Source of the DNA: Pseudomonadota bacterium
GTDB taxonomy: Bacteria > Pseudomonadota > Alphaproteobacteria > Paracaedibacterales > CAIOTO01
Assembly (NCBI GenBank): GCA_040387495.1
Contig: JAZKDQ010000001.1
Location: 124,001 to 188,000, forward strand
Direction: 5' to 3'
Length of the DNA: 64,000 nt
In this document: piece by piece, positions 27,906 through 46,398 of the stretch
Layout: every line of letters starts with the position of its first letter
Position numbering within the stretch: position 1 is the stretch's first letter
Notes under the pieces: generated by a model
What the model was told of the DNA's origin: nothing
Database searches by the model: none
The model's input: only the letters and a program-made list of their open reading frames with translations
Position numbers and translations under genes: made by a program

Positions 27906-29018
27906 TTAATCTTCTTTATTAAAAATCCAACCACCACCTAATACACGATCTCCATCATAAAATACACCAGCTTGCCCTGCTGCAATGCCGTATTCTGGCT
28001 CTACGAAAGTAACGCGTGCCTCAGTTGGTGATATCGCTTGGATAGTGGCATCGATTGGTGTTGCTGATGATCTTATTTTAATCTGGCATTCATGCGCATC
28101 TTTGAATTGCCGAATGTCACTCAGCCAATTCACCTCTTTAAGATGGATGCTATGTTTAGCTAAAGCTTCTTTTGGCCCTACATAGACACGCTTTAGACCA
28201 GCATCCAGACGCACCACATACAGCGGCTCAGCGCTTGAGATGCCAATGCCTTTTCGCTGTCCTACTGTAAAATTAATAATGCCATTATGTTGGCCAAGTA
28301 TATTCCCATCAACATGCACAATTTCACCTGGATCAAGTGCGCCAGGCCTTAATTTTGAAACGATGGATGCATAATTGCCATTTGGAACAAAACAAATATC
28401 TTGGCTATCTGGTTTTTCAGCGACACTAAGTGAGAAACGTTGCGCATGTTTACGTGTTTCAGCTTTGCTAGCAAATGCACCTAGCGGGAAACGTAAATAA
28501 TCAAGCTGATCTTGTGTGGTTGTAAATAAGAAATAGCTTTGATCACGTGTTTTATCAATGGCTTGATGTAGTTCCGCTTTTTCATTCATAACACGTTTGA
28601 CATAATGCCCAGTTACAAGGGCTTTTGCACCTAAATCATGCGCAGTATCGAGTAAGTCCCGGAATTTCACTTTTTGATTGCAACGAACACATGGAATTGG
28701 GGTTTCACCGCGCATGTATGAATCTGCAAAATCATCGATTACATTTTGGCGAAAGAGCGTTTCATAATCGAGAACATAATGCGGAAACCCAAAACGATCT
28801 GCAACTTGGCGAGCGTCATATATATCCTGTCCTGCACAGCAGGCGCCTTTTTTTTGAATCATTGCGCCATGGTCATAAAGTTGCAGTGTTATACCAACAA
28901 CATCATAGCCTGCTTCAACCATTAATGCTGCTGCAACAGAAGAATCCACGCCGCCTGACATAGCAACAGCAATGCGTGCGCCTTTTTCAATTCCATCAAG
29001 TGCAAACGGTGAAGACAT
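27906..29018 (-). CDS. mnmA: tRNA 2-thiouridylase
   Basis: [44 protein letters not shown]. Confidence 0.98.
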
Positions 29019-29019
29019 C

Positions 29020-30129
29020 TTAAGCCTTTATTGCTTTTGAATTTGATTTGAATTTACTTAGAAGCTGGTACACAGAGAATGCCATGAGGAATGGATAAAT
29101 CCACTCAAGTATGTAGCCGAGCCAATTGCAAATAGTTTCAAAGCCTAGCAAAGATAATGAGAAGCTTGCAATGACAGTGAAAATAATCGCATGTGGACGA
29201 GAAATTTTATTTTTACAAATATCTTCTTTAACAAAATCAGCAAACAGTGCAGCAAGTATGGTTGCCGTTGCAAGGCATGAAATAGCAAGTGTGACAGCAA
29301 TAAATGGAACAGCATATCGACCAAGTGTTTGTTGCGCGATAACTGCTAACATTGATTCTTGCGGTACATTCGCAAGGAAAGGGCTATACAAATGCCCAAG
29401 CATAACAAGGCCTATATAGCATGCCGCTAATAAAACCCCGCCTACTAAGCTTGCTAAAATGCCCATGCGAATAAGTTTTTCGTCAGATTCATTTTTGCCA
29501 AGAGCGCTTTTTAAATAATGATAAATTGTACTAGCAAAAAAGAAACTCGCTAATAAATCCATTGTTTGATACCCCTTGTGCAAACCAAGGAAGAATGATG
29601 CTGAAGGTGCTATTTCTGAATGTGTAACGGGTGTGGCGAAATAAATGCCAACAACAATTAAAAGGATGTAACTACCTAGTTTTATTGGGGTCAAGAAAAG
29701 ACCAATGATGTCTACGATGCTATTTGTGCGCCAGATAAGTGCGCCAATGGATGTGCAAAAGAAAGCGCTAAATACCCATAATGGTAACGCTGGATACATA
29801 ACTTCGAATCCACCAAAGGCGACATCAACGCAACGTGGAATAACGCCAAAAGGTCCCATTAGCATGAGCATTAGAAGTGTTAAGATGAATGCTGGGGTTT
29901 TACCCAAAACAGAAAAATATTCCTTGCGATCACCTTTGAACTTCATCATGCCAAGCATTCCTAAGAATGGGACACAGACAGCGGTAATGCTAAAACCTAA
30001 AATGGCATAAATATAAAGACTTTGTGATTTGAACCCAATAAGTAATGGAAAAATCAAATTTCCTGATCCAAAGAACATTGAAAACATGGCAAACCCTGCG
30101 GTTAACACGAGCTTAGTTGTAGACGACAT
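29020..30129 (-). CDS. brnQ: Branched-chain amino acid transporter (LIVCS/BrnQ family)
   Basis: [40 protein letters not shown]. Confidence 0.92.
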
Positions 30130-30290
30130 TGTTAAAAACTCCTTCCCTTTGAATATAAGTATTAATACACGGAAAGTCTATAGAAAAATAAGAAATGTGG
30201 GAGATCCATATTTTTTTAGATCATGCTAAATAGATGAGAATAGAGCTTAATATTCAAAATATTTTTACGGTATTGATGTACGTTCTATTT

Positions 30291-30467
30291 TTACGTGCGT
30301 CCAAATAGTCGTTCAATATCTTTCTGGTGCAGTGTCACATAAGTAGGTCTGCCGTGATTGCACTGACCGGAATTGGGTGTTGATTCAATTTGTCGCAGCA
30401 GGGCATTCATTTCAGCTAGAGACAAGCTTTGCCCAGCGCGAATGCTGGTGTGACAGGGTGTGTGTTG
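30291..30467 (-). repeat. Diverged duplicate of the mutL 3' end (direct repeat of 31491-31666)
   Basis: Offset exactly 1200 bp; 11 mismatches in 167 bp; 30311-30418 identical to 31511-31618; frame intact, reads [16 protein letters not shown]...[12 protein letters not shown]; 5' part of mutL absent. Confidence 0.97.
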
Positions 30468-30470
30468 TTG

Positions 30471-31391
30471 TTATTTTAATTGTTTTAGAGCGTTTTGAGC
30501 TTGCACAAGTCCTTGATTAGCCGCAAGTGTTATCCATTTAATCGCTTCTGTTTTATTTTTCTCAACGCCATCCCCATTATAATACATTACTCCTAAGGTG
30601 TATTGAGCCTCTGGAAAACTTTGGCATGCTGCAAGGCGAAAAAATAAAGCCGCTTTCTGTTTGTTTTGTGTGGTACCTATTCCATCACGATACATCTCCC
30701 CAAGGTTATATTGAGCTTTAGCACTTCCTTGATCGGCTGCAAGATGAAGCCAATGCATTGCTTCTGTTTTATCACTTGTACTACCTAATCCATCACGATA
30801 CATAACACCAAGATTATATTGAGCTTTCACAAATCCTTGATTGGCTGCAAGATGAAGCCACTGTTTTGCTTTTGCCATATCTTTTGCAATATATGATCCC
30901 TCAAGATATATCATTCCAAGGTTATATTGAGATTCAGCATCCCCTTGATTAGCTGCAAGATTGAACCATTTTTCGGCTTCAGTTGCATTTTTTTCTGCAC
31001 CTATTCCAAGATAATAGCAAATACCAAGGTTGCATTGTGCTTCAATTAAACCTTGCTTGGCAGCGAGCTGAAACCATTTCTTTGCTTTTACCGCATCTTT
31101 TTCAATACCAATCCCGTCAAGATACATCATTCCAAGGTTATATTGAGCCTTAGACAATCCCTGATTGGCAGCAAGCTTATACCACCGTACTGCCTCTTTT
31201 TCATTTTTTTCTACGCCATCACTTTTTGCATACATCGTACCCAATTCATTTTGAGCATTTGAATCCCCTTTTTCGGCGGCATGTCGTAATGTGTCAATTT
31301 TATTTTTAGGTGGTTTAATTGACCAGGCGGGTGTGACCATGGTCGCGATGGACAAAAACGTTATTATTTTTTTAATTAATGATTTTTTCAT
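30471..31391 (-). CDS. Secreted Sel1-like repeat protein (7 full repeats)
   Basis: Signal peptide ending PAWS; 36-aa period AANQG...AQYNLG.MY..G.G...D...A..W. Confidence 0.95.
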   Translation of the reverse strand: MKKSLIKKIITFLSIATMVTPAWSIKPPKNKIDTLRHAAEKGDSNAQNELGTMYAKSDGVEKNEKEAVRWYKLAANQGLSKAQYNLGMMYLDGIGIEKDAVKAKKWFQLAAKQGLIEAQCNLGICYYLGIGAEKNATEAEKWFNLAANQGDAESQYNLGMIYLEGSYIAKDMAKAKQWLHLAANQGFVKAQYNLGVMYRDGLGSTSDKTEAMHWLHLAADQGSAKAQYNLGEMYRDGIGTTQNKQKAALFFRLAACQSFPEAQYTLGVMYYNGDGVEKNKTEAIKWITLAANQGLVQAQNALKQLK

Positions 31392-31490
31392 GTTGCCATC
31401 CTTTTATTAGATATATTTTATATGGGACTTGAATTTTTAATATCAAGGCCTTTGTATGAAATATTCATAAATATTGATTTTTTTGAGTTT

Positions 31491-33395
31491 TTACGTCCGG
31501 CCAAATAACTGTTCAATATCTTTCTGGTGCAGTGTCACATAAGTAGGTCTGCCGTGATTGCACTGACCGGAATTGGGTGTTGATTCAATTTGTCGCAGCA
31601 GGGCATTCATTTCAGCTATGGACAGACTTTGACCTGCGCGAATGCTGGTGTGACAGGCATGTGTTGACAAAAAATCTAACAATGCTTCATGGGATGTCAG
31701 TGTTGCATGCTCATCGCTTAAATCGGTTAATAAATCGCGGATCATAGGTTCTGGGTCGGCATGTTGCAATAGTGCTGGGATAGAACGAAAGGCTGCTTGA
31801 TTGCCAAATAATTCAAAATCAAAACCGAGTTGTATGAGTACATCCTTTTGTTGTTCGAGTGCTTCAGATTGACGTTCATCGATAGTAAGCACAAGGGGTA
31901 TCATAAGGAGTTGCCGTGCAGCTCCGCCAGTTAGATATTGTGTTTTAAGTTTTTCATACACAATGCGTTCATGTGCGGCATGTTGATCCACAATAATTAG
32001 GCCATTCGTTGTTTCAGAAATGATGTAGGTTTTTGCAATTTGTGCTTTTGCATTGCCTAAAGGGTAATCGTGCAGCAGGGCTGCGTTTGGCGCATCATCA
32101 AAAAAGGGCACATCGTCTGAATACATTGCGGGCGCATATGTTGGTCGTGTAGACGGTCCACTACTTAGTGATGAGCCTAAGGACGAAGCCATGAAAGGAT
32201 GTGTACTTTGTCGCATGTTTGGATAAGTATTTTGCGTTGAACTACGATAATCAGTTTGCGATGTAGGGCTGTGCATCTGTTCAGGTTGCCGTTGAAAGCG
32301 CATGAGTGCTTCACCACTTAAATGTGACGCTGTTTCACGACCATGGCGTTCTAATGTGGATTTCAACGTGCCAATCATAAGTGATCTCACGCCTTGCATA
32401 TCCCGAAAACGTACCTCTGTCTTTGAGGGGTGCACGTTGACGTCGACCTCGGCTGGATCAACCGTTACAAAGAGTGCGACTACAGGATGCCTGCCGCCTT
32501 CTAAATAATCTTGATATGCTGCTTTTAAGACACCAAACAAAAGTTTATCGCGTACAGGGCGTTGATTGACAAAGAAGAATTGCTCGGTCGCTTGGCTTTT
32601 GTGAAAAGTAGGTAGTGAAATGACGCCGCTAACGGATATGCCATCACGTTCCCCATCAGCTAAGCGTAAATTATCCAGAGTTTTTTGCCCTAACACATCA
32701 GCAAAACGTTCGCCCAGTGTTGCGCATGCCGTGTAATCAAATACGGTGCGTTCATCAGATCTAAATTTAAACGAAACAGTCGGGTAGGCGAGTGCTAATC
32801 GTTTGACGATATCAATACATGCTGAAAGTTCAGTTGTGTCTGATTTTAAAAATTTAAGGCGTGCAGGCGTCGCGTAAAATAAATCTTTAATCGTAATGCG
32901 CGTACCCTGGGTTGGAAATGAAACTGGCTTTGGCAAGCTAAGTACGCCGCCTTCAACACAGAGCTCCATAGCCATGGATTGCGTGCTATTTTTAGGGTGG
33001 CTTGTGATGGATAACCGGCTGACTGAACCGATAGAGGGCAGGGCTTCGCCACGAAAACCAAGCGTCATGATATTAAATAAATCGCCTGTGGGTAGTTTTG
33101 ATGTTGCATGGCGTTGAATGGCGATCATCATGTCAGCTTCCGTCATGCCGACGCCATCATCGATTACTTGGATAAGGCTTTTTCCGCCATCACGAACAAG
33201 AATATCAACTTGTGTAGCTTTTGCATCGATTGCGTTTTCAACGAGTTCTTTAAGTGCAGCAGCTGGGCGTTCTATGACTTCACCGGCAGCAATTTGATTG
33301 ATAAGTGTTGCGTCGAGTTGACGAATGATGGGGCGTGAAGATACCGCATCGTGTATTTCAAAGGTTGAAGTGAGTAGAGACGATGTTACAGACAT
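31491..33395 (-). CDS. mutL: DNA mismatch repair protein MutL (endonuclease type)
   Basis: NQIAAGEVIERP, GFRGEAL, DVNVHPSK, DQHAAHERI..E, CNHGRP; start uncertain (33395 or further upstream). Confidence 0.98.
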   Translation of the reverse strand: MSVTSSLLTSTFEIHDAVSSRPIIRQLDATLINQIAAGEVIERPAAALKELVENAIDAKATQVDILVRDGGKSLIQVIDDGVGMTEADMMIAIQRHATSKLPTGDLFNIMTLGFRGEALPSIGSVSRLSITSHPKNSTQSMAMELCVEGGVLSLPKPVSFPTQGTRITIKDLFYATPARLKFLKSDTTELSACIDIVKRLALAYPTVSFKFRSDERTVFDYTACATLGERFADVLGQKTLDNLRLADGERDGISVSGVISLPTFHKSQATEQFFFVNQRPVRDKLLFGVLKAAYQDYLEGGRHPVVALFVTVDPAEVDVNVHPSKTEVRFRDMQGVRSLMIGTLKSTLERHGRETASHLSGEALMRFQRQPEQMHSPTSQTDYRSSTQNTYPNMRQSTHPFMASSLGSSLSSGPSTRPTYAPAMYSDDVPFFDDAPNAALLHDYPLGNAKAQIAKTYIISETTNGLIIVDQHAAHERIVYEKLKTQYLTGGAARQLLMIPLVLTIDERQSEALEQQKDVLIQLGFDFELFGNQAAFRSIPALLQHADPEPMIRDLLTDLSDEHATLTSHEALLDFLSTHACHTSIRAGQSLSIAEMNALLRQIESTPNSGQCNHGRPTYVTLHQKDIEQLFGRT

Positions 33396-33754
33396 GATAT
33401 GTTTTTTTTTGTTAATGGCCATTACTATCTTTGTACACCATTTAGTATCGTTCATCGAGAGTATAGTGAAAAAAGAGATGCATATTTTGAGCCGCCTTAA
33501 ATGTGTCTTATTAATCTAGGTTAAATGTAAAACACTCATTTTGTTTGCTAATATTTGTTGTAAAATTTCATATTTTTGTTTAAGAGTGTATCAAATCAGT
33601 ATAAAACTTATTTCTCAGAGCATTAAAAATACATTTGCTGATAAAAATATTTTAATGTACACTTATTATTGTACTTGTAATTACTATTAAAAAGTCATAT
33701 AAGGACAGTTCCATTTAATAAAAAAGCATTAATTTTACGCATTAAAGAGATTGT

Positions 33755-34981
33755 ATGAATTATTTATGGGTTAGATGTGCGCGAAACATAGTATTGATGG
33801 CATTGTTGTTTTGCTTGCAGAACAAAGATAATTGTTTTGCAATGAATTCTGATATGAATAGTGAAGGCTTCCAGAAAAGCTTTTTAAACTACATGAAAAA
33901 AGCCCCTCAATTAGCAGCTACTGTTGATGAGAGTTTTTGTCTTCCTGCATCTTGCTACTCTTTCAAATGGAAGCGGATTCCAGCTTGGACTTTTAAATGG
34001 CCTTCAACGTGGACTTTTGGCTGTAAAATTCTTGCAGAACCTAATGTTGGTGTGCAAGATGAAGGTGCTGCAATAATGGATTTATCATTGAAAAGAAGTA
34101 AACCTAAAAGTGAAGAATGGCAAGCTAATGCTGCTATTGATGATGATTATGATGATAGTGTCACTGAACGTGACAGTACAGTTTTTAGACCACATTTAGC
34201 TTCTTGGGAAAAACCAATGACTCCGATAGAAGTGGATGATAAAGTAGTTTATCGTAAGCCGCTAGAAAAAATAGAAAGCTCTTCAGAACAAGCAAGCATT
34301 GATCCTCTTGATGCCTGTGAAAAAAGGACGGTTATTAATGAGAAAAGAGTGGTCCATCTTCTTTTTGTAGAAGATTCCATAACAATTCAAAAAATGTTCA
34401 ATCTATGGGTGAAAAATATTAATCAGGATTCATCGAGTGAATATACTATAGAAGCTGTTGTTTGTACCTGGGGATATGAGGCTCTTGAACGCTATAACGA
34501 TATGGTTCGTGAAGGTAAGCAACCTAAACTCATCTTAACTGATATTAATCTGGAAAACTTCTATCTAAAGAAAAACAGATGCATGTGTCGCAAAGGGGTT
34601 GTCACGCCAACTGGGTTTAAAAAGGCTGGGATTGAATTCGTGAAAGCGATCCGTGCTCAAAAACGTAAGAGTACTACGTTTGAACGTATTATGACATGGA
34701 AAACAGAAAAGTATACTTCTTTATATGCAGATGAAAAGTTAAGTAGCTCTGGTGATAAATATAATTATGTTGGAAGACAAAATAAAAATTATAGCATTTT
34801 CCCTTATACAGGTCCCATCATTGCATTAACGAGTACTCCAGATGATGTAAAGGATGGCGATAAAGAATTGTTTGCTACTAAAAAAATCGAACTAGGAGCA
34901 GAAATAAGTAAAACTCTTGTAGTTAGAGAAAAATTAAAGAATAAATTTGATCTCATAGAAATTATATCATTATGCATGTAA
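33755..34981 (+). CDS. Hypothetical protein with signal-like N-terminus and degenerate C-terminal receiver domain
   Basis: HLLFVEDS, GYEALE, KLILTDINL, GIEFVKAIR, PIIALTS occur in receiver order. Confidence 0.7.
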   Translation: MNYLWVRCARNIVLMALLFCLQNKDNCFAMNSDMNSEGFQKSFLNYMKKAPQLAATVDESFCLPASCYSFKWKRIPAWTFKWPSTWTFGCKILAEPNVGVQDEGAAIMDLSLKRSKPKSEEWQANAAIDDDYDDSVTERDSTVFRPHLASWEKPMTPIEVDDKVVYRKPLEKIESSSEQASIDPLDACEKRTVINEKRVVHLLFVEDSITIQKMFNLWVKNINQDSSSEYTIEAVVCTWGYEALERYNDMVREGKQPKLILTDINLENFYLKKNRCMCRKGVVTPTGFKKAGIEFVKAIRAQKRKSTTFERIMTWKTEKYTSLYADEKLSSSGDKYNYVGRQNKNYSIFPYTGPIIALTSTPDDVKDGDKELFATKKIELGAEISKTLVVREKLKNKFDLIEIISLCM

Positions 34982-45114: not shown

Positions 45115-46398
45115 TTACACTGCCTGAGCTTTTTTAGGTGTCAATATACGCTCCTGAAAAACTGTCTTTGGCTTAAGTAGGCGTTCTATTAATATATCCA
45201 CTTTTTCCTTTTCTGAATTAAAGTAAGTGCGTGTAGCGCAAAGAATTGTTTCAATATTTGTCTGTTCTACATTATCCATTTTGGTGTCATCTCGACTTAA
45301 TAAGGGGGTTAGCCTTGTATAACTATTAAAATAATGAGATTTGCAGTATTTATCAGTTTGTAATGATTGTGCTTCGGTAAACATGCCCGATAAATGAGGT
45401 CCCCAACTGAGAATTCCAGCATTATGCATGTTTTCAATAAATAAAGGTTTATTTGCACGCCCAGAACCAATTGATACAATTTCAAATATCTCGGCTTCTG
45501 GATAAAGCTTTTTCGCTTCTAAAACCAGATCGAAAGTGGGGTTATTCGCAACAACTCCTCCATCAATTAGTGTATAAGTTCTTTGGCCGCGTGGAGTTTG
45601 AGGGTTAGTGTCCTTCGAAACGTTGCTAACTACGCATGGATCAAAATAGGTTGGAGCTGCAGAACTTGCAGTTGTTACATCAGCTTTTATAAATACTTCT
45701 CTGTCCCAACTTGTTATTATTTTAGGAATACGCATGTTTATATCATAGGTAAAAATCGCAGTGTGAGTTGTTGTATTATTTGTTTTATCTTCGCCAAGAT
45801 ATTCTTCAATGACCGAATGTAATTTCTGAACTTTGTATCTAGTTCCTAATCTGCCCCCCAAAGATGTATATATAGGCTCAAACATGTCAGGTAAACGTCT
45901 ATGTATAATAGAAAATAGATTTTCTGCAGTATATTTTGGTTGTTTTGATTTAGGTTTGCTGGGTGTTGTTAGGAATGTTGCAAGTAAAGCGCCCGCAGAA
46001 GTTCCCCCAATGAGATGAAATGCATTACTGAGGTATACATGATCCTCACTTGGTGAAAGTTCATTGAGCCTTTCTTCAAGTAATCTTATAATTTCAGCTT
46101 CTACAATTCCACGAGCGCCACCGCCGTCTAGGCTAAGTATGCGAACTGTTTTTCGTGGTGCATGTGTAAGCGCTTCCTCGCCCATGTGAAGAAGAGGGGA
46201 AAATGAAGTATTTGCTGGATTTTCCAATGTTATGCTTGACGGTCTGCTTGGTGAGTTAATTGATAGCATGCTTAATCGATTAAGTGCATCCTCGTTAAAT
46301 GGAGGATTTACTGATGCGTCAAGCATTGTAGTTGATAGGTAGGTAACTAAAGCTATAAAAATCTGTCTTGTAAATATTGTCTTTTGGTAACTCTTCAT
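45115..46398 (-). CDS. Patatin-like phospholipase with signal-like N-terminus
   Basis: ILSLDGGGARG, GTSAG, SSAAPTYF, DGGVVANNP; GAGGAG RBS. Confidence 0.94.
   Translation of the reverse strand: MKSYQKTIFTRQIFIALVTYLSTTMLDASVNPPFNEDALNRLSMLSINSPSRPSSITLENPANTSFSPLLHMGEEALTHAPRKTVRILSLDGGGARGIVEAEIIRLLEERLNELSPSEDHVYLSNAFHLIGGTSAGALLATFLTTPSKPKSKQPKYTAENLFSIIHRRLPDMFEPIYTSLGGRLGTRYKVQKLHSVIEEYLGEDKTNNTTTHTAIFTYDINMRIPKIITSWDREVFIKADVTTASSAAPTYFDPCVVSNVSKDTNPQTPRGQRTYTLIDGGVVANNPTFDLVLEAKKLYPEAEIFEIVSIGSGRANKPLFIENMHNAGILSWGPHLSGMFTEAQSLQTDKYCKSHYFNSYTRLTPLLSRDDTKMDNVEQTNIETILCATRTYFNSEKEKVDILIERLLKPKTVFQERILTPKKAQAV

Follow-up and report, generated by a model that had tools for sequence, protein, structure and literature searches.

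A Sel1-repeat gene of 306 codons stands between an intact mutL gene and a second, detached copy of the mutL 3′ end in a 64,000-nt stretch of DNA from a Pseudomonadota bacterium (assembly GCA_040387495.1, contig JAZKDQ010000001.1, positions 124,001–188,000). This whole stretch is called the window below, and its coordinates are used unless a contig is named. The two mutL ends differ to the degree expected between species and mostly at synonymous sites, indicating that both evolved as working ends of mutL. The same layout, an intact gene followed by cargo and an orphan gene end, was found at eight further loci of the genome and also in a sister species, and no recombinase gene lies near any of the nine cassettes. 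On balance, the arrangement probably arose by single-crossover homologous integration, without an integrase, of a small circle that carried the gene end of a related lineage together with its cargo.

The genome that contains the window (G000) is metagenome-assembled and comprises 1.66 Mb in 20 contigs, with 99.9% completeness and 0.07% contamination. MutL was searched in this genome and 40 relatives, among them six congeners (G001–G006). Local repeats were screened by self-BLASTN in G000 only, and Pfam profiles were run against all 49 non-overlapping open reading frames (ORFs) of at least 110 amino acids (aa) in the window.

A Sel1 gene bracketed by two mutL 3′ ends

The cassette and its borders are made up of the following parts.

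29020–30129, minus strand: brnQ-type branched-chain amino acid transporter gene (Pfam PF05525), the conserved downstream neighbour, which adjoins mutL in G006, G003 and G002
30130–30290, minus strand: ancestral mutL–brnQ spacer, 161 nt, now behind the orphan (alignment with congener spacers)
30291–30457, minus strand: repeat copy 2, the orphan mutL 3′ end, an open frame (tblastn, 93% to MutL residues 599–654)
Within it, minus strand: A′ 30419–30457, core 30311–30418, B′ 30294–30310 and stop codon 30291–30293; the repeat extends to 30288
30458–30470, minus strand: new joint of 13 nt, from the Sel1 stop codon to the orphan start, spanned by one k=31 contig
30471–31391, minus strand: cargo gene, a Sel1-repeat protein of 306 aa with 7 repeats (Pfam PF08238)
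31392–31490, minus strand: cassette leader, 99 nt from the mutL stop to the Sel1 start, with blocks conserved in the G001 cassette
31488–31657, minus strand: repeat copy 1, the last 54 codons, the stop codon and 3 further nt of the working mutL
Within it, minus strand: A 31619–31657, identical core 31511–31618 and B 31494–31510
31491–33455, minus strand: intact mutL, an ORF of 654 aa (Pfam HATPase_c_3, DNA_mis_repair and MutL_C)

A repeat search returned 30288–30457 and 31488–31657 as a direct repeat of 170 nt with 94% identity and a spacing of exactly 1200 nt, and the sequence is present at only these two places in the whole genome (second match E 5e-70). Base-by-base comparison at the offset of 1200 placed the 11 mismatches at 30297, 30300, 30308–30310, 30419, 30420, 30425, 30426, 30432 and 30435. 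Every one of them lies outside an identical run of 108 nt (30311–30418), so that 11 of the 56 sites in the flanks of this core differ, a divergence at the level of species. When 11 differences were placed randomly in 164 sites, the chance of a gap of at least 108 nt was 3e-5 (200,000 trials). The core differs from the congeners at 15–24 of its 108 sites; it is thus not intrinsically invariant and was homogenised in G000. The in-register homology extends to 30457 and leaves 13 nt to the Sel1 stop codon (30471–30473); positions 30458–30464 are all mismatched.

A single open frame in the intact gene encodes the GHKL ATPase, DNA_mis_repair and MutL_C domains, as in an endonuclease-type MutL. ACH and CNHGRP are motifs of the MutL C-terminus; the orphan retains CNHGRP and reads PCH where mutL has ACH. 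The orphan frame is open over 59 codons and is in frame with the Sel1 gene beyond its TAA. At the second Sel1 cassette of the genome, described below, the corresponding offset is 17 nt and out of frame, and the in-frame position of the mutL orphan was therefore treated as chance, as was the divisibility of the spacing by 3.

These results agree with a preliminary description of the window, made from the letters alone, in its two principal statements, namely that the mutL 3′ end recurs 1,200 bp away around a Sel1 gene and that all 11 mismatches fall outside a 108-bp identical core. Its distance of 4 nt between the repeat and the Sel1 stop is corrected here to 13 nt. The two residue changes that it named (I/L and Q/R) are present, but its tally of eight synonymous and three other mismatches becomes 9 and 2 by Nei–Gojobori counting; likewise the repeat covers CNHGRP as described, but not ACH in the orphan.

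The mutL site in related genomes

MutL orthologues with 71–89% identity were found in all six congeners. The preliminary description had proposed that relatives be compared for empty sites or different cargo at this junction, and both are present. In G006, G003 and G002 mutL is followed directly by brnQ, which is the empty site. G001 has mutL, then a 269-aa Sel1-repeat ORF that is about 40% identical to that of G000 and is preceded by a homologous leader, and then its own mutL orphan, all on one short contig. The other two congeners, G004 and G005, have another synteny, with a NAGPA-family gene at that place. Throughout the search set, only G000 and G001 have a full-length mutL with a further C-terminal mutL fragment downstream of it; the remaining partial MutL matches come from genes that are split (G007, G030) or from fragments lying at the end of a contig (G012, G023, G037).

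The spacer behind the G000 orphan aligns over its full length with the mutL–brnQ spacer of G006, and its brnQ-proximal 70 nt align with those of G003 and G002. This match to G006 indicates that the orphan occupies the former place of the resident mutL end; by position, the orphan is thus the original host terminus, as had been suggested. The G001 orphan is eroded on its 5′ side (a 12-nt gap and 14/27 identity), and the longest identical run between the G001 mutL copies is 22 nt. In the mutL tree, G000, G006 and G001 form a near-trichotomy (81–83% nucleotide identity; bootstrap 75–77% for G006 with G001) with G003 outside, and the distribution of the cassette calls for two gains, or else for one gain and one loss. 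A metagenome scan with the C-terminal 239 aa of MutL returned two loci, which at 41–44% identity are too distant to be informative here.

Cargo, leader and joint

The Sel1 protein matches PF08238 in 7 stretches (E 4e-79; 258.7 bits against a cut-off of 30.7), which places it in this family, and its gene shows a 108-nt periodicity in the repeat search. By eye, its N-terminus is hydrophobic and looks like a signal peptide. The GC content at third codon positions (GC3) of the gene is 26%, compared with 34–36% in the adjoining genes. A homologue search with the protein gave 5,274 matches, none above 50% identity, and a family-wide genome search gave none above 49%.

The leaders of the G000 and G001 cassettes are identical at 63 of the first 105 aligned positions, with runs of 9–10 (TTGATATTA, CCCATATAAA) and the block AAAGGAT, which we read by eye as promoter-like sequence and a ribosome-binding site. 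Comparison of the leader with the resident spacer revealed no comparable homology beyond about 40 nt. Because G000 and G001 have this leader in common, the two cassettes share an origin despite their distant cargo. A promoter and terminator scan of 29900–31800 found 7 promoter-like sites where 6.2 were expected and 0 terminators, and an Rfam search of 29000–34000 returned only one tmRNA fragment at chance level (E 0.5).

In one of four public sequencing runs, X3, a soil metagenome from a separate study, two 151-nt contigs of depth 13–15 are identical to the Sel1 interior (30597–30747 and 30843–30993), with nothing matching mutL, the orphan or brnQ alongside. The Sel1 gene could stand in another context there, or the pattern could be a filtering effect.

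The two copies diverged as coding sequence

Synonymous and non-synonymous differences between repeat copies were obtained as Nei–Gojobori counts and tested against a null ratio of non-synonymous to synonymous rates (dN/dS, omega) of 0.5. This value was used rather than 1 because the intact copy stays constrained while a dead copy drifts. Over 162 nt, the G000 mutL copies have 9 synonymous and 2 non-synonymous differences (dN/dS 0.06; P against 0.5 = 0.005), the latter corresponding to the I/L and Q/R changes in 54 codons. Over 126 nt, the G001 copies have 16.5 and 7.5 (dN/dS 0.08; P = 0.004), and their proportion of synonymous differences (pS), 0.56, is at the between-species level. The orphans of G001 and G000 differ from each other by 22 synonymous and 3 non-synonymous changes, a comparison confounded by the conversion of the G000 core.

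Since the divergence is mostly synonymous, both copies evolved as working mutL ends, and in-place duplication followed by neutral decay is rejected. Gene conversion should erase the synonymous and non-synonymous changes of a neutral copy alike and so cannot produce this bias. Each mutL end therefore diverged as part of a functional gene, and the two came to lie together recently compared with that divergence.

A diversity-generating retroelement was considered separately and rejected: the mismatched position is an A at only 2 of 11 sites in the orphan or 3 of 11 in the intact copy, and the window ORFs include no reverse transcriptase.

The same layout at other loci

The preliminary description had also called for a self-BLASTN of the genome for other duplicated gene ends around accessory genes. 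Thirteen local repeats were picked by eye for annotation (roughly at least 88% identity and a spacing of about 1 kb or more), a selection that is non-exhaustive, and eight of the 13 show an intact gene, cargo and an orphan gene end. The repeats at these eight loci are 78–815 nt long and derive from five 3′ ends, two 5′ ends and one whole gene. They are given here with the synonymous/non-synonymous differences between the copies and the test against 0.5.

Sodium:dicarboxylate symporter gene (SDF), C1:27627–31168: last 318 nt, 88.7% identity; cargo a 95-aa ORF and a 533-aa Sel1 protein with 13 repeats; 31/6, dN/dS 0.04, P 3e-9
TLC ATP/ADP transporter gene, 3′ end, C14:94161–99451: two orphans, 78 nt at 100% and 190 nt at 96%; cargo an antidote-type gene, then a fatty-acid hydroxylase and a DCC1-like gene; 4.5/4.5, dN/dS 0.29, P 0.23
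Cytochrome b561 gene, 3′ end: 310 nt, 92%; cargo an MFS transporter and an HTH_38 protein; 15.5/10.5, dN/dS 0.18, P 0.012
BipA gene, 3′ end: 94 nt, 96.8%, with a hairpin and T-run by eye; cargo a 292-aa repeat protein; 1/0, dN/dS not applicable
ABC-F ATPase gene, 3′ end: 586 nt, 88.7%; cargo a 230-aa ORF; 41/6, dN/dS 0.03, P 7e-13
FtsX-like permease gene, 5′ end: 173 nt; cargo a DUF4143 ATPase; 9/7, dN/dS 0.20, P 0.09
AAA_11 helicase gene, 5′ end: 406 nt; cargo a 417-aa ORF; 18.5/13.5, dN/dS 0.17, P 0.012
tatC, whole gene, C6:84565–88261, just upstream of serS: 815 nt, 99%, both copies intact 250-aa ORFs; cargo a DDE transposase fragment and a GT90 glycosyltransferase; 1/1, dN/dS not applicable

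The five other repeats are two transposase copies, Wzy_C paralogues, a leucine-rich repeat (LRR) gene region and an intergenic repeat beside lon. Coding selection on both copies, which the preliminary description had proposed for mutL, thus finds support at mutL in G000 and G001 and most strongly at ABC-F and SDF. All orphans examined keep open frames; that of SDF is an intact 105-codon ORF with an ATG start, and the SDF copies share at most 34 identical nt in a run. At TLC, what looks like two sequential displacements would make the nearer orphan the younger one. Homology at mutL, SDF and TLC ends at or just past the stop codon, and no common junction motif was seen by eye with six repeat pairs set side by side. 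Cargo GC3 is mostly 19–31% (higher, 34–43%, in 3 of 13), compared with 33–45% in the conserved neighbours (BipA, 27%).

G000 has only two Sel1 genes (tblastn E < 1e-10), both inside such cassettes, at mutL and SDF. In G001, a further Sel1 gene, of 396 aa, on contig C55 (L074:1133–3002) lies between 63-nt direct repeats with 95% identity that derive from the 3′ end of a spermidine-synthase gene on the opposite strand; this was the one locus with a bracketing repeat among four Sel1 loci of relatives scanned about 1.5 kb to either side. The SDF site is empty in G006, where SDF is followed by nusG, and the SDF orphan is absent from all five congeners searched. Empty sites for both TLC and cytochrome b561 were found in G003. 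The intergenic site between cytochrome b561 and dCTP deaminase holds a different 301-aa ORF without a Pfam match and without an orphan in G001 (contig C171, L069:2217–3122), and appears to be a hotspot for different cargo. The process proposed for mutL would thus have been at work at many G000 genes and also in the sister species.

Affinities of the orphan and intact ends

At mutL, the copy-differing sites have low power to tell which copy is native: the numbers agreeing with the two copies are 4/5 for G006, 4/6 for G003 and 5/4 for G002. The sites on either side of the mutL core are too few for separate trees or counts to carry information. The SDF orphan shares its base with G006 at 20 sites, compared with 8 for the intact end (P = 0.036); for G001 the numbers are 20 and 10. 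Identity to G006 is 88.5% for the SDF orphan, 84.9% for the intact end and 83.1% for the gene body, with no clear break between body and 3′ end in sliding identities. These values fit two readings: a native SDF orphan with an imported intact end, or a crossover in the nearly identical last 68 nt that left an orphan made up mostly of donor DNA from a G006-like lineage. The SDF orphan is not the faster-evolving copy under either reading, which argues against decay in place, and in all four loci compared the orphans are no further from relatives than the intact ends.

Upstream of the mutL repeat (31658–32120), G000 is 77.0% identical to G003 and 76.0% to G006 and G001, while G003 shares 72.1% with G006 and 70.4% with G001. 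These values hint weakly at an import that reached beyond the repeat into more of the mutL 3′ region.

Recombinases and assembly evidence

None of the window ORFs searched has a recombinase or transposase domain, PF00589 and PF00239 included, as the preliminary description had noted for integrases. In the whole genome, PF00589 has one weak match (28 bits) in a 458-aa ORF flanked by an M23 peptidase gene and mreB (C15:68668–70044), and this profile detected no separate XerC/XerD pair in G000; PF00239 has one match, a small resolvase on C14. Both matches stand in housekeeping surroundings, and no recombinase was found near any of the nine cassettes. G000 does encode RecA and a ComEC-family gene.

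The four public runs were available as k=31 contigs, with which phasing across the 108-nt core is impossible. In the probable source run, one contig of 1,152 nt and depth 11.1 (30389–31540) leads from the core through A′, the joint, the Sel1 gene, the leader and B back to the core. This single contig proves that the joint between the Sel1 gene and the orphan and the link from the mutL end to the Sel1 gene are real. Depth is 11 in the flank to 30340, 29.3 in the core (30311–30418) and 12.2 in mutL from 31589. The contig graph fits either an integrated cassette or an empty chromosome accompanied by a 1.2-kb circle at equal copy number. Integration is favoured by the equal depth, by the G001 form on a single contig with its 22-nt run and by the SDF cassette with its 34 nt. 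The only joint in the contigs leads from 30718 to 31122, within the Sel1 repeats, and gaps in runs X2–X4 are uninformative.

A single-crossover model and its alternatives

In the model that we favour with some reserve, a unit of ~1.2 kb, composed of a mutL 3′ end, a 100-nt leader with expression signals and one Sel1 gene, would have come from a related lineage diverged at the species level. It would have entered the resident mutL by homologous recombination, most likely through one crossover between a small circle and the chromosome. The product would be a chimeric working mutL with the incoming last codons, followed by the cargo and then by the resident 3′ end, shifted downstream as an untranslated orphan in front of its own spacer and brnQ. 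The 108-nt core would have become identical through heteroduplex repair at the crossover or through later gene conversion. The circle itself could arise by recombination between the two repeats of a cassette already integrated in the donor. Since the cargo lies between two direct repeats, the insertion should be reversible in principle, and a RecA-type deletion would restore an intact mutL. The interpretation offered in the preliminary description is thereby supported, the circle and the position of the crossover being inferred.

Several points weigh against single-crossover integration. The Sel1 searches yielded no donor, with no match above 50% identity. The core may be the result of later gene conversion and so does not locate the crossover. 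Recombination between 170-nt segments that are 82–88% alike is expected to be rare. The gap between cargo and orphan, 13 nt at mutL and 17 nt at SDF, is not predicted by a random circle and could be a deletion scar, and the model does not account for the founding event by which a gene end and its cargo first came to share a circle. Mosaic tests on mutL upstream of the repeat are weak: quartet counts shift toward G003 in the mutL 3′ third (Fisher P 0.005–0.36 depending on the outgroup), with controls trending likewise (P 0.14–1). The tests for coding-type divergence at FtsX and TLC are not significant alone. Finally, no circle, excision or empty-site junction was seen in the k=31 contigs, nor any joint that skips the 1,200 nt.

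That the cassette is instead the eroded remnant of an integrase-borne island or prophage at the mutL 3′ end, similar to the e14 element of Escherichia coli, or an integrase-less element mobilised in trans, we regard as unlikely. The architecture is identical to that of e14 at icd and icdC, where the gene continues into the element and a C-terminal pseudogene stands at the other side (PMC13626634), G000 and G001 have the site and leader in common, the cargo ends within 13–17 nt of the orphan in the manner of a deletion scar bounded by a selected gene, and the genome is small, at 1.66 Mb. However, tyrosine and serine recombinases are missing from the window and from the surroundings of all nine loci, no common core motif is apparent by eye, and a larger island at mutL is present in none of the 40 relatives searched. 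At least nine different target genes, two of them affected at their 5′ ends, would each have needed their own, now lost, integrase; the shared layout at many targets, 5′ ends included, with no integrase makes erosion the less economical account. Nor is there much probability in homology-facilitated illegitimate recombination of linear DNA, in which a crossover upstream in mutL would be paired with a foreign end joined 167 nt before the resident stop. Such joints have been proposed for displaced ends in the effector–immunity arrays of type VI secretion systems (PMC5361080), a homologous anchor is plausible, a ComEC-family gene is present, the SDF orphan agrees with G006 over its whole length without a visible switch point, and there is the weak hint of a different affinity in the G000 mutL 3′ third. 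Against this, the mosaic signal is not robust, as controls trend alike, and the route usually deletes recipient DNA, with duplications tracing to circles (PMC3240628), whereas recipient DNA is duplicated here.

The remaining explanations carry far less weight. An in-place duplication by slippage, template switching or illegitimate repair, made during or after insertion of the Sel1 gene and with the orphan as a dead copy of the genome's own mutL end, is barely credible: it needs no donor, and the 108-nt identical core looks young, but the flanks differ at the species level, only 2 of 11 differences are non-synonymous, and the bias is repeated at ABC-F, SDF and in G001. All orphans examined have open frames, and gene conversion should not be able to remove only the non-synonymous changes. 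It is very improbable that the cassette is not integrated at all and that the assembler threaded a separate 1.2-kb circle, sharing the 108-nt core, into the contig of an empty chromosomal site. A graph of precisely this shape emerges from the k=31 contigs of the source run; yet integration predicts the equal depth seen for cassette and chromosome, a 1.2-kb DNA with only a Sel1 gene would be unlikely to persist at one copy per genome, the integrated form stands on one G001 contig with at most 22 identical nt and at SDF with at most 34, and contamination of G000 is 0.07%. Selection of the orphans in place, as small proteins, as 3′ untranslated or terminator sequence or as spare recombination ends, is equally hard to credit. 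Their frames are open throughout, the SDF orphan has an ATG start, the mutL orphan continues the Sel1 frame past its TAA, and the BipA repeat includes, by eye, a hairpin followed by a T-run. However, a function would be needed for each of the unrelated fragments of MutL, SDF, ABC-F, cytochrome b561 and TLC, the scans returned neither a terminator-like site nor an Rfam match at the mutL orphan, the G001 orphan is eroded at its 5′ side, and three congeners have no orphan.

Beyond the individual insertions, the loci may reflect a recombinase-free, homology-addressed cassette system, although we consider this doubtful. In such a system, small circles consisting of a housekeeping gene end, a promoter and one accessory gene would pass between relatives diverged at the species level and integrate by RecA crossover, and the orphan repeat would permit looping out. 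The accessory genes may typically encode effector-like repeat proteins.

Relation to known systems

A close parallel is e14 in the icd gene of E. coli K-12. There the element supplies a replacement 3′ end and the original C-terminal fragment remains at its far side as the pseudogene icdC; differences between the copies are mostly synonymous or conservative, and excision rebuilds a chimeric working gene (PMC13626634). As with e14 and phage 21 at icd, the end of a housekeeping gene has been replaced at mutL and the original end left at the far side, so that target-derived direct repeats and an element-borne end that keeps the gene intact are both present; an adjacent recombinase gene is not. Unlike e14, a 15-kb prophage remnant with its own site-specific recombination and SOS-induced excision, the cassette is 1.2 kb long with one gene and no recombinase, and its layout is found at many genes, at 5′ ends too.

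For the displacement of rhs C-terminal ends, homologous recombination via small circles without a dedicated recombinase has been proposed (Jackson et al. 2009; PMC2935791). There, as probably at mutL and the eight other loci, an incoming partial conserved gene with new downstream DNA shunts the resident end, leaving dissociated ends. Successive displacements give rise to arrays in rhs; here one orphan is present at mutL and two at TLC. In contrast to rhs, where non-homologous toxin tips change the protein, the ends are homologous housekeeping sequence and the payload is a separate gene. The rhs core fragments within a locus are reported to be identical, whereas the copies described here differ at the species level.

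In E. coli conjugation experiments, insertions with locus duplications of 109–950 bp were traced to a single crossover with a circle, and homology-facilitated illegitimate recombination combined one homologous anchor with a joint at 3–10 bp of microhomology, usually with a deletion in the recipient (PMC3240628). The E. coli range covers most of the repeats of 63–815 nt found here. Unlike such laboratory plasmid events or the models for toxin loci, the present cases are natural, fixed insertions between diverged lineages. The cis-mobilizable elements (CIMEs) of streptococci have no integrase, keep short att sites and use the integrase of a related element, and the minimal mobile elements of Neisseria enter by double crossover in both flanking genes without a duplicated gene end. 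Like these, the cassettes are small integrase-less cargo units that have a fixed address between conserved genes and may be exchanged between strains. A literature search found no natural gene-end duplication of the single-crossover or Campbell type in endosymbionts or by transformation, which as the result of a word search is no proof of absence. What is new is the combination of one-gene, recombinase-free cassettes, housekeeping gene ends as the address, copies diverged at the species level, nine loci plus a sister species, and recurrent Sel1 cargo.

The lineage is probably intracellular, judging from its TLC ATP/ADP transporters and its LRR, ankyrin and Sel1 proteins. Reduced host-associated genomes are commonly regarded as closed, with few mobile elements; in this genome of 1.66 Mb nine loci, and at least two in the sister species, bear the footprint of additive integration. 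If the single-crossover model is true, an orphan gene end with a low dN/dS relative to its intact neighbour would be a signature of recent integrase-free gene gain, recombination would be documented between lineages about 15–18% apart, and the model of a circle and single crossover would extend from rhs toxin tips to ordinary genes with effector-like cargo. Should the wider cassette system exist, the gene end would serve as an address label and the orphan as a return ticket, and host-interaction genes would be exchanged without mobile-element machinery. For annotation, short gene-end “pseudogenes” beside accessory genes should be treated with caution, as they would be insertion borders rather than products of decay.

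Other genes of the window

Downstream of brnQ lies an mnmA-type gene, identified from the ORF list and Pfam:

27906–29018, minus strand: mnmA-type tRNA methyltransferase gene

On the other side, upstream of mutL, a 408-aa ORF without a Pfam match (33755–34981, plus strand) is only 28–31% identical to the same-position ORFs of G006 and G001, compared with 88–97% for its neighbours; it is a very fast-evolving or replaced gene. Further along, a 427-aa ORF for a patatin-like phospholipase (45115–46398, minus strand) is surrounded by housekeeping genes and is a possible host-interaction gene.

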